A DNA stretch of 64,000 nucleotides, from assembly GCA_039588055.1 (NCBI GenBank), contig JBDHAN010000001.1, positions 26,014-90,013 on the forward strand. Direction: 5' to 3'. The notes below the pieces were generated by a model. That model searched no databases and was not told the origin of the DNA. It saw nothing but the letters and a program-made list of their open reading frames with translations. Every line of letters starts with the position of its first letter. The first letter of the stretch is position 1. The translations under genes were made by a program, and so were the position numbers. Positions 38,525 through 43,571 of this stretch are shown here, piece after piece. The DNA comes from Gemmatimonadota bacterium (GTDB lineage Bacteria > Gemmatimonadota > Gemmatimonadetes > Gemmatimonadales > GWC2-71-9).

Positions 38525-39169
38525 TTGTTCGGTGCCGGGGTTGCAACGAGTCTGACACCGTGCATCTACCCCATGATTCCGATCACCGCGGGCGTCCTCG
38601 CCGCGTCCACGGACCGCCACACCTCACGGTGGCGAACCGTCCGCCTCACGCTCACCTACGTGTCCGGCCTCGCGCTGCTCTACGCATTCCTCGGCATGCT
38701 CGCCGGACTCACCGGGTCGCTGTTCGGCAGCGTGGCGTCGAATCCGTGGGCCCGGTTCGCCATCGGAAACGTGCTGCTCCTCTTTGCCCTGGCCATGCTC
38801 GACGTCATTCCGGTAGCAGCCCCACAGCGAATCGTCGCGTGGGCCGGAAAGCTCGGTGGTGGATCGTATCCGGCCGTGTTCCTGCTGGGGGCGACGTCCG
38901 GGCTCGTTGCTGCTCCCTGCGGCGCACCGGCGTTTGCCGTTGTCTTGACGTGGGTGGCCACCACCGGCAACGCCGCGCTCGGGTTCATGTACCTCTTCGT
39001 GTTCTCCATCGGCATGACGGCACTCCTTATCGCGGTCGGGGTATCCTCAGGAACGCTGGCGGCCCTGCCGAAGTCCGGGCAGTGGATGGTGTGGATCAAG
39101 CGGCTCGCCGGCCTCGCGATGCTGGCAATGGCAGAGTACTACTTCATTCAGATGGGGATGGTCTGGTAA
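38525..39169 (+). CDS. ccdA: Cytochrome c biogenesis / thiol-disulfide transporter CcdA (DsbD-beta family)
   Basis: FGAGVATSLTPCIYPMIP and LVAAPCGAPAF carry the two conserved membrane cysteines. The only canonical start is TTG 38525, but the protein-like frame continues upstream to 38396 (see findings). Confidence 0.8.
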   Translation: MFGAGVATSLTPCIYPMIPITAGVLAASTDRHTSRWRTVRLTLTYVSGLALLYAFLGMLAGLTGSLFGSVASNPWARFAIGNVLLLFALAMLDVIPVAAPQRIVAWAGKLGGGSYPAVFLLGATSGLVAAPCGAPAFAVVLTWVATTGNAALGFMYLFVFSIGMTALLIAVGVSSGTLAALPKSGQWMVWIKRLAGLAMLAMAEYYFIQMGMVW

Positions 39170-39699
39170 TGCGCACTCGTTGGCTGACCGTCGGGACGAT
39201 CGCGGCACTGCTCACTGGCGCACACGTGCCTGCGCTCCACGCGCAGGCCACGAATGCGGTCGGTCTGCCGGTCGGGTCCACGCCCGAGGCGACGGTCGTC
39301 GAGGATCTCGAGGGGAACGCAGTGGACCTCGGTGCGCTCGTGGGACAGAAGCCGGTGCTCGTGGAGTTCTGGGCCACATGGTGCAACGTGTGTGAGGAGC
39401 TCGCACCGACCATGCAGGCCGCACACGATCGGTTCGGCGAGCAGGTCGACTTCCTCGTCGTCGCCGTTGGCGTCAATCAGAGCCGCCGGTCAATCCGACG
39501 CCACAGGGAACGGCACCCAGCGCCCTTCCGGTTCGTGTTCGATGCCCGCGGCCGCGCGACCCGCGCCTTCAAGGCCCCGACAACCGCGTACGTCGTCATA
39601 CTCGACGCAGATGGGAAGGTCGCCTATACCGGAGTTGGCGCAGACCAGGATCTCGAGGGCGCGCTCGAGCGGGTCCTCAGCGGGCCCGGAAGCCCCTAG
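39169..39699 (+). CDS. TlpA/ResA-like periplasmic thiol:disulfide oxidoreductase (thioredoxin fold)
   Basis: The ATG overlaps the ccdA stop (TAATG). Signal peptide MRTRWLTVGTIAALLTGAHVPALHA and active site FWATWCNVCEE (WCxxC). Confidence 0.8.
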   Translation: MRTRWLTVGTIAALLTGAHVPALHAQATNAVGLPVGSTPEATVVEDLEGNAVDLGALVGQKPVLVEFWATWCNVCEELAPTMQAAHDRFGEQVDFLVVAVGVNQSRRSIRRHRERHPAPFRFVFDARGRATRAFKAPTTAYVVILDADGKVAYTGVGADQDLEGALERVLSGPGSP

Positions 39700-39702
39700 C
39701 AC

Positions 39703-39736
39703 AACGGGCTCGGCAACGGCCGAGCCCGTTTTCGCG
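39703..39736. terminator. Bidirectional hairpin terminator between tlpA (+) and the peroxiredoxin (-)
   Basis: 12-bp perfect stem AACGGGCTCGGC / GCCGAGCCCGTT with a 4-nt loop, followed on the plus strand by TTCGCGTTTC. Confidence 0.6.
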
Positions 39737-39764
39737 TTTCGTCACGCGCGTTCGGCCGGCAGCA

Positions 39765-40328
39765 TCATAACCCGGAATCCGCCGGCGTCACTTCATCAAT
39801 CGCGTCTTCCAGCTCCTCATAGGCCGTCGGATCGATCTCCCTGAACGGCGCCGCGACATAGCTGATTGTGCCACTCGGATCGATCACGAACAGCGCGCGG
39901 CTCCGGGGAGCACCATACAGCCTTCCGACGTTCGCTCCTTCATCGCTGCCGAACAAGAACGGGAACTCATCGTCCTTGGCCCAGGAGGCCAGCGCTTCGG
40001 GTGAATCCGTGCTGATGGCCACGAGCACCACGTTGCGGCCATTCCGAAACAGTTGCGCGTACTGATCACGGTACGCGTGCATTTGGATCGTTCAGCCACG
40101 GGTCCGTGCTCGAAAGAAGAACGCGAGCACGACGGTCTTGCCACGGAAATCGTTCAGCGTGACCTGGTCTCGCAACACGCCGAAGCGTGTCGCGCCCGGA
40201 AGCTCGAAATCCGGAGCCACGGTCCCGACCTGGAGGGGCTCCGCACGCTCCTGACAGGCTGCCGGTGTCACCGCGACTACGGCCGCGCCTGCCGCCGCGA
40301 GCAAAGCAAAGGTCTGCCTGCGCATCAC
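39765..40328 (-). CDS. Putative selenocysteine-containing peroxiredoxin (AhpC/TSA-BCP fold), exported; in-frame TGA at 40092..40094
   Basis: ORFs 40328..40092 and 40082..39765 are in the same frame and are separated only by TGA plus three sense codons. The joined sequence ...GKTVVLAFFFRARTRG[U]TIQMHAYRDQY...VAISTDS...FPFLFGSDE is collinear with BCP-type peroxiredoxins, with the TGA at the peroxidatic Cys position. The N-terminus MMRRQTFALLAAAGAAVVAV is Tat-like. Confidence 0.65.
40056..40077 (-). promoter_or_regulatory. Candidate bacterial SECIS hairpin
   Basis: On the mRNA, 14 nt after UGA: CGCGUAC-CGUGAUCA-GUACGCG, a perfect 7-bp stem with an 8-nt loop containing GU. Confidence 0.45.
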
Positions 40329-40398
40329 TGATTACTCCAATTCAGAATGGTCTCCAAGTATGCACGGCCGCGCGGCACGCGCCACGAACCGCCGTGCG

Positions 40399-41970
40399 TT
40401 ATCTCAGAAGCTCTTTCACTTCTCGGCGTCCGGCCAGTTCGGCGTCAATCTGCACGCCGATCTCACGCGCACGCTCTAAGTCGGCCGTGAGGTCGTCCAT
40501 CGTTGCCATTCCCGCCTGTACCTTGAGCAGCCCGAGCCGTACGTTCTCGAGCGCGGCCACGGTAGTGGCCAGCCGCTCTCCCGTATCGCCGCGGCGGCGC
40601 AACGCCTCGGCGTCGTGCTCCAGCTGCCGTATGACCTCGGGTACTTCCGGCATCCGCCGACGCATGTCACTGGGCAGATCCTGATACAAATCCGCTGCGG
40701 CGCGCCCAAGCACGATCTCGGTTGCATCGCTCGAGGGCAATACGCGATGCTTGGGCTTCTTGAGCCCAAACCCGACCGCGCGGAAGTATGTGCGGCCGAA
40801 CCAGCCGGCCCAGAGCCGGTTCCACAAGCCGTTAACCCGTCGCATGAACTTGCCCGACCCTGCCGCCTCTGCCTCTTCCTCCAGCGCCTGAGCCTCGGCC
40901 AGCAACGCCGCTCGGATGTCCTCGAAACTGTACCCCACATTGAGCAGGCGCCGCGCTCGGGCGACGAGTTGAATGAATAGCGCCAAAAGGATGAAGTTGA
41001 GGAGTCCCGAAAAATTTCCGGCTTCCTGCGAGACCATGGCCGCCGTGATAAACACGGCTGTCGTAACCTCGGCGTTGCGGAGGAAACCTCTGATGAGTGG
41101 AGGAGCTCTGAGCTCCCGGCCACGCATCTCACCGATTGCCTGCGCCAGCTCCTCGCCACTGGGGTAGCGAGCGTCGGGCATCTTCTCCAGACACTTGCCG
41201 ATGAGACCCGAGAGCTTTGCCGGGACCTCGCGGCGGAACTGGGTCACCGCCGGAGCTGGCTCGGCAACGTGCTTGGCCAACAGGGCCGGCACATTCGTCG
41301 CCTCGAATGGGGCGCGACCTGTGAGGGCAAAGAACGCCGTCGCGCCGAGGGAGTACAGATCGCTGCGCGCATCGGTCGGCTCGCCGGCGGCCTGCTCCGG
41401 ACTCATGTATCGCGCGGTCCCGACGACGTGACCCTGTTCCGCCGGCTCATCGACGTCCTCCACATGAGCGATGCCAAAGTCTGTCAGCAGCGCGCGGCCG
41501 GTCGCCTGATCAAACATGATGTTTTCGGGCTTGATATCGCGATGCACGATGCCGCGCTGATGCGCGTACGACAGCCCCCATGAGATCTCCTGCACGAGCC
41601 GCATCGTTTCACGGGGTGACAGCGGTCCGGCGCGGATCACCCGGTCCCGTAGGGTCTCGCCGTCGACATAGCCCATCACAAAGAAGACCAACGTGCCGTG
41701 TTCCTCGACAGAATGGATCGGGACGACATTCGGATGGGACAGCCCGGCCGACGTCCGGGCCTCGCGGAGAAACCGTTCCCGGCGCTCGGGATCTTCCGCC
41801 AACTGCAGAGGGAGCAGTTTCATTGCCACTAAACGATCGAGCGCCACGTCGCGGGCGAGGAGCACGATGCCCATGCCACCTCGCCCCAACTCACGCTCGA
41901 GCGAATAGCGGCCTTTCACGGCGTCCTGCAGGGTCAAGAACTCGGGGCTCAGCATCTCAGCCATGGCCAT
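40399..41970 (-). CDS. Ser/Thr protein kinase with a C-terminal TM hairpin and coiled-coil region
   Basis: GRGGMGIVLLA...AMK, HRDIKPENIMF, DFGIA and GTARYMSPE, followed by two TM segments and a ~190-aa helical tail. I prefer the ATG start at 41970; the track ORF begins at GTG 42009. Confidence 0.85.
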   Translation of the reverse strand: MAMAEMLSPEFLTLQDAVKGRYSLERELGRGGMGIVLLARDVALDRLVAMKLLPLQLAEDPERRERFLREARTSAGLSHPNVVPIHSVEEHGTLVFFVMGYVDGETLRDRVIRAGPLSPRETMRLVQEISWGLSYAHQRGIVHRDIKPENIMFDQATGRALLTDFGIAHVEDVDEPAEQGHVVGTARYMSPEQAAGEPTDARSDLYSLGATAFFALTGRAPFEATNVPALLAKHVAEPAPAVTQFRREVPAKLSGLIGKCLEKMPDARYPSGEELAQAIGEMRGRELRAPPLIRGFLRNAEVTTAVFITAAMVSQEAGNFSGLLNFILLALFIQLVARARRLLNVGYSFEDIRAALLAEAQALEEEAEAAGSGKFMRRVNGLWNRLWAGWFGRTYFRAVGFGLKKPKHRVLPSSDATEIVLGRAAADLYQDLPSDMRRRMPEVPEVIRQLEHDAEALRRRGDTGERLATTVAALENVRLGLLKVQAGMATMDDLTADLERAREIGVQIDAELAGRREVKELLR

Positions 41971-42183
41971 ATCTGCGTTGGGGCGATCATCCACCACACG
42001 ACAAATCACGATTCGCGCGACAACAACTGCTCATGCGGCGTCGCCCGTAAGCTACGTGTCCCCCGACCGCACGACCAGCCATGCACACATGACCGTCTGC
42101 CCACCACGCTTGACCGTCCACCGGCCCTCGGGCATTATCCGCAACGGCCTTTTGGCGGCATGCGCCGCAAGGAGCGCAGCAGG

Positions 42184-42690
42184 GTGATTCAGAAGAAGAT
42201 CTGCATGGTCGGCGTATATGGGACTGGGAAGACGAGCCTCGTCCAGCAATTCGTCCACGCCAAATTCTCCGAGCGCTATCACTCGACCGTCGGTGTGAAG
42301 ATCGACCGCAAGCCGGTGACGGTGGACGGGACCGACGTGAATCTCCTGCTCTGGGACTTAGAGGGTCGCGACGGTGTGCAAGACATCCAGACGAGCTACC
42401 TGCGGGGGGCATCCGGGATCATCTACGTTGCCGACGGAACGAGACTCGAGACGTTCGAGCAGATCCTCGAGCTTCGTGTCGTGGCCAAGAAGGCCATTGG
42501 CGATGTGCCGTCCGTGTGCGCGGTCAACAAGGTCGATCTCACCGAGGAGTGGAAGATCTCCGATGCGCAGATCGAAGGACTGGACGCCCCGACATGGCAC
42601 TCGCTCAAGACCAGCGCAAAGACGGGTGCGGGGGTGGAAGAGGCGTTCCACTGGCTCGCGGCCACAATGATCGGAGGCGCCGAGGCATGA
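42184..42690 (+). CDS. Ras-superfamily small GTPase (Rab/Ras-like)
   Basis: G1 GVYGTGKTS, G2 T in YHSTVG, G3 WDLEGRD (DxxG, with Arg replacing the catalytic Gln), G4 NKVD, G5 TSAK. GTG 42184 has AAGGAG 9 nt upstream. An alternative ATG is at 42160. Confidence 0.8.
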   Translation: MIQKKICMVGVYGTGKTSLVQQFVHAKFSERYHSTVGVKIDRKPVTVDGTDVNLLLWDLEGRDGVQDIQTSYLRGASGIIYVADGTRLETFEQILELRVVAKKAIGDVPSVCAVNKVDLTEEWKISDAQIEGLDAPTWHSLKTSAKTGAGVEEAFHWLAATMIGGAEA

Positions 42691-43571
42691 CCGAGCCGGA
42701 CTTGGATCAAACCCAACCACTTGACGCCGTACCGGAGCCGCCGGTGCGCATCGATGCCTATGGCATCACTGACACGGGCAAGGTTCGACAGCAAAACGAA
42801 GATCAATTCGCCGTCGGCCGCATGACGAGGTCACTCGAGCTCACACATACGAGCCTCGGCACTGTTTCGTCACTCGACCGCCTTGGCAAAACCGCGGCAG
42901 ACATTTACATCGTGGCGGATGGCGTGGGAGGAGTGGCTGGTGGCCAGTTAGCGAGCGGGATCGCTGTGGAGGCCCTGACAGAGTACCTCGCGCAGACGGC
43001 GGGATGCTTCTATCACACGGACATTGCTTTGGAGCACGAGCTCCTCGAGCGCCTGGAACAGGCGGCGCAGCATGCGCACGAGAGGGTCCGGGCTTTTTCG
43101 CCGAAGGGCCAGGGCCCGGCAACAACGCTCACCATGGTGACACTCCTCTGGCCACGCGCATACATCGTGCACATCGGAGACAGCCGGGGATACTACCTGC
43201 GCGGTGAGCGTCTTCGGCAGTTCACCAGAGATCAGACGATGGGCGAGTTGCTGGTGGACGAAGGAGTGGTCACGGAGCAGCAGGCCCGAGATTCCGGACT
43301 GGACAATGTGCTCGCCAGTGCGGTGGGTGCTGACATCAATCCCTCGATTGGCCTGCTGGACCTGCAGTACGATGACACAGTGCTGCTATGCTCCGACGGA
43401 CTCACCAAACACGTCTCGGACGAAGAGATCTCTGCGTTTCTGCAGGAAGGACAGGACGCCGCATCCACGTGCCGCCGGTTGGTTGACGCAGCGCTCGAGG
43501 GTGGCGGAACTGACAACATCACGGTCGTTGTCGCCCGTATGGGACGGCCGGCGAGTCCCTCCAGCGACTGA
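42687..43571 (+). CDS. PP2C-family Ser/Thr protein phosphatase
   Basis: The ATG overlaps the GTPase stop (ATGA). Motifs: TDTGKVRQQNEDQF, VADGVGG, HIGDSRGY, LLCSDGL, GGTDNITVVV. Confidence 0.9.
   Translation: MTEPDLDQTQPLDAVPEPPVRIDAYGITDTGKVRQQNEDQFAVGRMTRSLELTHTSLGTVSSLDRLGKTAADIYIVADGVGGVAGGQLASGIAVEALTEYLAQTAGCFYHTDIALEHELLERLEQAAQHAHERVRAFSPKGQGPATTLTMVTLLWPRAYIVHIGDSRGYYLRGERLRQFTRDQTMGELLVDEGVVTEQQARDSGLDNVLASAVGADINPSIGLLDLQYDDTVLLCSDGLTKHVSDEEISAFLQEGQDAASTCRRLVDAALEGGGTDNITVVVARMGRPASPSSD

Follow-up and report, generated by a model that had tools for sequence, protein, structure and literature searches.

A candidate selenocysteine insertion hairpin, conserved and covarying, in a secreted peroxiredoxin gene of Gemmatimonadota

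Introduction

On the minus strand of a 64,000-nucleotide (nt) stretch of DNA from a Gemmatimonadota bacterium (assembly GCA_039588055.1, contig JBDHAN010000001.1, positions 26,014 to 90,013; hereafter the window), a gene for a secreted peroxiredoxin contains an in-frame UGA codon, and a short perfect hairpin lies just 3' of it. The question raised by this locus is whether the hairpin is a bacterial selenocysteine insertion sequence (SECIS), through which the UGA would be read as selenocysteine (Sec), or whether it has another origin. An earlier note, made from the DNA letters alone, had called the hairpin SECIS-like. Based on a comparison of orthologous sequences, we conclude that the hairpin very probably directs Sec insertion in a secreted BCP-type peroxiredoxin, with a rough probability of 0.92. 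The mechanism is known and textbook; what is new is an unusually well-conserved example in a Gemmatimonadota peroxiredoxin. No published descriptions of Gemmatimonadota selenoproteins were found in the literature searched.

The gene and its in-frame UGA

The gene and the codon in question are located as follows.

39765..40328, minus strand: predicted selenoprotein gene, secreted AhpC/TSA (BCP/PrxQ-like) peroxiredoxin, 187 codons including the in-frame UGA
40092..40094, minus strand: UGA, probably read as Sec codon (codon 79), at the peroxidatic Cys position, T-x-x-U

Among the established selenoprotein families is peroxiredoxin (PF00578, TxxU), with Sec/Cys exchange at T-x-x-U/C (PMC1794560; PMC13188914). 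In the window gene, the Pfam AhpC-TSA domain was matched by residues 34-157 (profile positions 1-123 of 124, E = 9.7e-27, 93.8 bits vs a cut-off of 26) and crosses codon 79 uninterrupted; with the active-site motif T-R-G-U, the protein therefore falls within this family. Full-length Cys homologs of 55-65% identity could be aligned over the entire protein, with BCP/PrxQ-type thiol peroxidases as the best-matching type, and the reading frame 3' of the UGA is conserved as protein. In 112 homologs with Cys (Cys forms), the UGA column corresponds to the invariant peroxidatic Cys (...ARTxGC-TIQM...), and in 187 of 187 distinct orthologs with the in-frame stop (Sec forms) the codon is TGA. The peroxiredoxin gene's own terminator is UGA as well (39767..39765, minus strand), so that recoding would be local and UGA not reassigned in the organism. 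As Cys is absent from the mature protein apart from the Sec position, the protein would be expected to work as a 1-Sec peroxiredoxin with no resolving Cys.

The PrxU equivalog (NCBIfam NF040737) scored 46.2 bits on this protein, vs a curated cut-off of 270, and the window gene reads F-R-A-R-T-R-G-U where the complete motif would be PxxxTxxU. The residue concerned, at codon -7 (window 40113..40115), is Pro in 111 of the 112 Cys forms, whereas the 187 Sec forms have Phe (115), Tyr (56), Pro (11), Ile (4) or Val (1). The replacement of Pro might mark a lineage or reflect a catalytic adjustment to Sec, and may interest peroxiredoxin enzymologists.

Geometry of the hairpin and chance expectation

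The hairpin and the spacer that separates it from the UGA consist of the following parts.

40078..40091, minus strand: spacer ACGAUCCAAAUGCA, 14 nt, from the UGA to the hairpin base; length constant
40071..40077, minus strand: 5' stem arm CGCGUAC; pairs 3 and 5-7 invariant, pair 1 covarying, pairs 2 and 4 with G-C to A-U double changes
40063..40070, minus strand: apical loop CGUGAUCA, 8 nt (C-G-U-G-A-U-C-A); GU at loop positions 2-3, presumed SelB contact
40056..40062, minus strand: 3' stem arm GUACGCG; the last Ala codon and the codon before the 5' arm covary at their third bases

The stem comprises 7 perfect Watson-Crick pairs and the hairpin spans nt 17-38 (U of the UGA = 0), within the codons H-A-Y-R-D-Q-Y-A; the 22-nt hairpin alone has a folding energy of -9.4 kcal/mol. 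The coordinates, arm sequences, 7-bp complementarity, GU-containing 8-nt loop, distance from the UGA and codon context given in the earlier note were thus all reproduced exactly on the minus strand, and RNA folding, which it had proposed as a check, recovered the hairpin as the apical part of the minimum free energy (MFE) fold of a 71-nt region.

Perfect hairpins of at least 7 bp and the same geometry follow 0.8-1.1% of all positions in the 64-kb window (63.5% G+C), and 14 of its 1755 TGA triplets. For the window sequence on its own, p is about 0.01, a modest departure from chance; what gives the hairpin its weight is the comparative data, not the single sequence. When further hairpins with the loop CGTGATCA were sought in the window and the fetched loci, one 4-bp chance match was found, in locus L201, and none in the window.

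Conservation in orthologs carrying the UGA

Orthologs were collected in two ways. Metagenome contigs were scanned with the degenerate pattern A-R-T-x-G-UGA-T-[IV]-Q-M, which ends 5' of the hairpin; this yielded at least 120 loci, with 119 of 120 being true orthologs and all 119 carrying the hairpin. A second, profile-guided scan, in which each species was represented by one genome, gave 80 loci: 79 UGA forms, all with the hairpin, and one Cys form. The loci of the genome scan belong nearly all to Gemmatimonadota (Gemmatimonadales, Longimicrobiales, unclassified), with a few titled uncultured bacterium or otherwise. The metagenome matches listed and the 79 genome loci together gave a set of 187 distinct 240-nt sequences (mean nt identity 71%, minimum 50%), to which the counts for Sec forms refer.

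The hairpin was found in the same register in all 187 sequences, with 7 of 7 pairs in 172 and 6 of 7 in 15, and with a mean energy of -9.2 kcal/mol. The distance between UGA and hairpin shows no indel in any of the 187, though the spacer residues vary (T-[I/V/A/Y/T]-Q-[M/L]-x). Public annotation also contains four gene calls of 105-108 amino acids (aa) that correspond to the C-terminal half of the gene after a break at the TGA, with an identical hairpin; being 94% identical to the window, they carry little weight for conservation.

Covariation of the stem

RNAalifold, applied to 150 distinct sequences over the region -12 to +72, returned the 7-bp helix exactly and no other structure; the result was the same with 185 sequences. 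In the 150-sequence alignment, 98.7% of the cells are paired, and among 1050 cells there are 0 one-sided changes. The closing pair is C-G in 51 sequences, U-A in 48, G-C in 36, A-U in 1 and unpaired in 14; stem pair 2 is G-C in 148 and A-U in 2, and stem pair 4 is G-C in 149 and A-U in 1. None of 500 column shuffles reached the observed covariation score, and in a control in which the 3' partners were slid by 1-3 columns, pairing fell to 3-52%. When mutual information was computed for all column pairs between -50 and +150, the closing pair ranked highest with 1.43 bits; the next, at 0.65, was not a base-pairing one.

The double changes at the inner pairs are of two kinds. In L089 (1597-1680) and L115 (3715-3798), pair 2 is A-U, with Ala changed to Thr (ACG) on one arm and Ala to Val (GUC) on the other, and RNA pairing has thus been kept at the expense of the protein sequence. 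In L077, where pair 4 is A-U, GCA is combined with UAU in a doubly synonymous compensation. The family is an unusually clean natural data set for RNA structure constraining protein sequence (dual coding).

Two further structures were considered and set aside. A lower stem in the single-sequence MFE fold, pairing GUGGCUG (including the UGA) with the downstream UGGCCGC, was rejected because support for pairing beyond the 7-bp helix came neither from RNAalifold nor from the mutual-information scan; it is lineage-specific or due to chance. An 8-bp perfect hairpin in the coding sequence 5' of the UGA, CGUGCUCG/CGAGCACG (40131..40124 with 40112..40105, minus strand), is paired in 16-90% of the sequences per position, without covariation, and is probably likewise a matter of chance or lineage.

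Codon usage in Sec forms and Cys forms

Six consecutive codons are nearly frozen in the Sec forms: GCG at +6 (99%, 184/187), UAC at +7 (100%, 187/187), CGU at +8 (99%, 185/187, the two exceptions being CGG), GAU at +9 (97%, 182/187), CAG at +10 (100% of 187) and UAC at +11 (99% of 187). Elsewhere in the gene, the amino acids concerned are encoded by 2-6 codons each. Ala is encoded there by 4 codons, the commonest at 45-72%, GAU makes up 15-44% of Asp codons, and CGU is a minor codon at the other Arg positions with the exception of codon -2. The 20-nt core GCGUACCGUGAUCAGUACGC hardly varies over the entire phylum-level set.

Cys forms served as the control. DNA was available for nine distinct sequences, eight encoding exactly AYRDQYA, a peptide found in 35 of the 112 Cys-form proteins, and one from the genome scan. 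Their codon usage differs from that of the Sec forms at +8 (CGU in 0/9 vs 185/187, Fisher p = 5.6e-14), at +9 (GAU in 2/9 vs 182/187, p = 1.4e-08, with GAC in 7/9), at +6 (GCG in 4/8 vs 184/187, p = 4e-05) and at +7 (UAC in 6/9 vs 187/187, p = 6.8e-05). Since CGU is never used, the Sec-form loop is absent from all nine, and GCC or UAU breaks or weakens the stem in most of them. All 7 Watson-Crick pairs were found in one Cys form, L205 (protein P0009), with a loop one base off (CGC for CGU); three further Cys forms have a stem of 6-7 pairs including G-U, and in the others the stem is gone, with energies of -2.3 to -4.1 kcal/mol or another fold altogether. L205 may carry what is left of a SECIS once Sec had been converted to Cys, or plain codon bias may account for its stem. 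In a neighbor-joining tree, all 177 Sec forms share one split with 20 Cys forms, and P0009 lies outside those 20.

These data bear on the explanation that the hairpin has no RNA function and is a by-product of a conserved A-Y-R-D-Q-Y-A read with preferred high-GC codons (GCG, UAC, CAG). The occurrence of this peptide in about a third of the Cys-form proteins and of in-register stems in L205 and three other Cys forms is what such a by-product would produce, but the Sec forms depart from it in several respects. The two Ala positions flanking Y-R-D-Q-Y vary in the 112 Cys-form proteins (the first A/T/S/Q, the second A/P/S/N/E/Q/G/D/T), so that the peptide is less constrained when the codon is UGC, whereas in the Sec forms they are fixed save where both change together. 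The loop codons CGU and GAU, rare elsewhere, are close to universal in the Sec forms, while the Cys forms never use the former. At the closing pair, the wobble bases change in concert across all four Watson-Crick combinations, which no protein or codon-bias model predicts, and one-sided changes are lacking throughout the stem. An artefact of very recent common ancestry is excluded by the mean nt identity of 71% among the orthologs and their freely varying flanks. We consider a by-product very improbable.

The earlier note had held the palindrome unlikely to follow from protein constraint alone. This needs to be divided: the stem does derive in part from A-Y...Q-Y-A with GCG and UAC codons, while its fixation, its covariation and the rare loop codons are specific to UGA forms and are what discriminates these forms. 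The stem on its own is thus weaker evidence than the note took it to be. The comparisons that the note had proposed came out in favor of a SECIS: the hairpin is kept by every ortholog with the UGA, the closing pair covaries with compensatory double changes at two inner pairs, and of the nine Cys forms none has the Sec-form loop and one has the complete set of pairs.

A purely DNA-level explanation was weighed against the same data. The locus contains the inverted repeat GCGTAC-N8-GTACGC, a perfect DNA palindrome with GTAC twice and a central TGATCA, which a dimeric regulator might bind or a restriction/modification system might recognize, and symmetric operators can change symmetrically. However, the repeat lies about 250 nt inside a coding region at a fixed distance from the UGA and is absent or degraded when the codon is UGC; its outermost pair takes four Watson-Crick combinations freely, as expected for base pairing and not for half-site recognition; and its 8-nt center CGTGATCA is asymmetric overall, yet invariant. 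We regard this as the remotest of the explanations considered.

Two features were observed to go with the Sec state: the active-site Pro is replaced by Phe/Tyr, and codon +3 (window 40084..40086) is CAA. This CAA is present in 169 of 187 Sec forms and in none of the nine Cys forms, which all have CAG (Fisher p = 4.8e-09); at the next Gln position, CAG accounts for 85%. Sequences with the rare CAG at +3 show a weak tendency to have loop variants as well (p about 0.007) and a higher G+C at third codon positions. Codon -2 also favors CGU, which makes up 74% of Arg there.

Fit to the bacterial SECIS model and proposed mechanism

The bacterial SECIS (bSECIS) model of Zhang and Gladyshev (bSECISearch), as summarised in a 2026 review (PMC13188914), calls for an upper stem of 4-16 bp capped by an apical loop of 3-9 nt. 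At least one of the first two loop nucleotides is a G, and in most cases G or U comes next; the distance from the UGA to the loop is 16-37 nt, and the MFE is -7.5 kcal/mol or lower. The hairpin described here lies in coding sequence, 14 nt 3' of an in-frame UGA that aligns with Cys. It has an 8-nt loop on a 7-bp stem, with G at loop position 2 and at position 3 a U in 185 of 187 sequences, a G in 2 and never C or A. The distance from UGA to loop is 21 nt (40091..40071) and constant in all 187 orthologs, and the energy of -9.4 kcal/mol is below the limit of -7.5. In functional terms, the structure is conserved and covarying in Sec forms and not maintained in Cys forms. Together, hairpin conservation, covariation, the contrast with Cys forms and this agreement with the bSECIS model support the SECIS-like reading with which the earlier note had begun.

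According to the mechanism proposed, the UGA (40094..40092) would enter the ribosomal A site while the 7-bp stem and 8-nt loop, beginning 14 nt downstream, would be situated just beyond the mRNA entry channel; with its base at this distance, the hairpin could stay folded at the mRNA entrance. The apical loop, with G-U at positions 2-3, would be bound by the C-terminal domain of a SelB carrying GTP and Sec-tRNA(Sec), and selenocysteine would be placed at the peroxidatic position instead of termination. From the established work on E. coli fdhF and on Moorella SelB-SECIS we infer that the element is read by SelB, with the loop G-U as the point of contact, and that selenium is incorporated.

Several observations weigh against a SECIS. 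In the 71-nt fold, the z-score was -1.74, with 16 of 200 shuffles equally stable; in a 151-nt context it was -0.16. Rfam, searched over the whole window at gathering scores, yielded three tRNAs and no family matching the element, and a permissive search of 39950..40200 gave a single meaningless match (E = 7.3). In four of the nine Cys forms, codon bias alone gives a stem in register, with energies of -7 to -9.4 kcal/mol, so that the stem in itself is not diagnostic of a SECIS. ARAGORN found no tRNA-Sec in the 64-kb window or in any fetched locus, and SelA, SelB and SelD were not among the 10 large window open reading frames (ORFs) tested, all of which encode unrelated proteins; as 64 kb of the genome are in view, the missing Sec machinery is weak negative evidence.

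That neither SelB nor tRNA-Sec was observed in the available sequence would also suit a functional, UGA-linked hairpin acting independently of SelB, as a generic stimulator of read-through or pausing, with a near-cognate tRNA (Trp, Cys) or another factor decoding the UGA. Against this stands the position of the UGA, which replaces the redox-active peroxidatic Cys, where Trp or Gly would inactivate the enzyme. In addition, geometry and loop G-U agree with the SelB-type model in every respect, and the two sequences deviating from CGU have CGG, which is the G[G/U] alternative of that model. SelB-independent decoding thus appears improbable, with a slim chance left to it.

Within the SECIS interpretation, G-U wobble and doubly synonymous compensations are avoided in the upper stem of the Sec forms. 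One might combine this with the other observations and propose that the frozen 20-nt core reflects lineage-specific, sequence-level recognition of loop and upper stem by a Gemmatimonadota SelB, that the SECIS arose from, or left behind, a hairpin of palindromic A-Y...Q-Y-A under high-GC codons, a pre-adaptation that would have eased the Cys-to-Sec switch, and that all this was coupled to the loss of the active-site Pro. We regard the combined proposal as tentative and on the whole rather doubtful.

Genomic neighborhood and annotation

The genes around the peroxiredoxin gene, listed by window coordinates, are as follows.

38525..39169, plus strand: CcdA/DsbD_TM protein, convergent with the peroxiredoxin gene
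39169..39699, plus strand: TlpA/ResA-like thioredoxin (WCNVC motif), convergent with the peroxiredoxin gene
40399..42009, minus strand: Ser/Thr kinase, upstream of the peroxiredoxin gene
42516..43571, plus strand: PP2C phosphatase, adjoining the kinase

The neighborhood (window 38525..42009) is conserved in loci L002, L003, L208 and L221, and the pair of thioredoxin and DsbD_TM protein flanks Cys forms too. These conserved neighbors suggest an extracytoplasmic reductant relay for the secreted peroxiredoxin. In related contigs (L001 and L003, first 900 nt), a small Ras/Roc-like GTPase is found there too; kinase, PP2C phosphatase and GTPase are a conserved signaling cluster adjoining the selenoprotein gene. 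The N-terminus of the peroxiredoxin, MMRRQTFALLAAAGAAVVAVTPAAC (40254..40328), looks like a twin-arginine or lipoprotein-type signal as read from its residues.

In public gene calls, the peroxiredoxin gene is broken at the UGA, which leaves one ORF of 76-82 aa and another of 105-108 aa, and a few records put L, W or V at this position; mis-annotated records comprise L001-L004 and the proteins P0004, P0097, P0099, P0108, P0008, P0012, P0018 and P0119. Recognition of the SECIS corrects the annotation of a peroxiredoxin that is widespread in Gemmatimonadota and at present systematically mis-annotated. Members of this peroxiredoxin family can be searched for simply and with high specificity by means of GCGUACCGUGAUCAGUACGC, 15 nt after a UGA, and the family could also be used for studies of SelB-SECIS specificity in Gemmatimonadota.

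Comparison with known systems

The closest comparison is with the SECIS elements of E. coli fdhF and fdnG, which are likewise stem-loops in coding sequence right 3' of the Sec-UGA, with a small loop carrying G and then U near its 5' side. In the fdhF SECIS, the loop G-U is G23-U24. The loop G-U described here occupies nt 26-27 (U of the UGA = 1) and is thus one codon farther from the UGA. The element further differs from the fdhF type in its 8-nt loop (CGUGAUCA), in place of a short loop of the GGUC type, in a stem without a bulged U, and in having no conserved lower stem, with covariation confined to the 7-bp helix. While bSECIS elements are usually dissimilar between genes (PMC13188914), the core GCGUACCGUGAUCAGUACGC is near-invariant here.

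Where Sec has been converted to Cys, remnant SECIS-like structures have been described 3' of the Cys codon (Zhang et al. 2006, PMC1794560). Some of the Cys forms analyzed here resemble these in keeping an in-register hairpin, L205 even with the full stem, but differ in that codon bias alone can yield the stem.

On the protein side, the predicted selenoprotein shares with known Sec peroxiredoxins (motif PxxxTxxU; e.g. PrxU of Eubacterium acidaminophilum) the AhpC/TSA fold and the placement of Sec at the peroxidatic T-x-x-U position. In contrast to PrxU, it is BCP/PrxQ-like, has an N-terminal signal sequence and contains no other Cys in the mature protein. From the PxxxTxxU family it is set apart by the replacement of Pro with Phe or Tyr in 171 of the 187 Sec forms, and from the known Sec peroxiredoxins by its occurrence in Gemmatimonadota.

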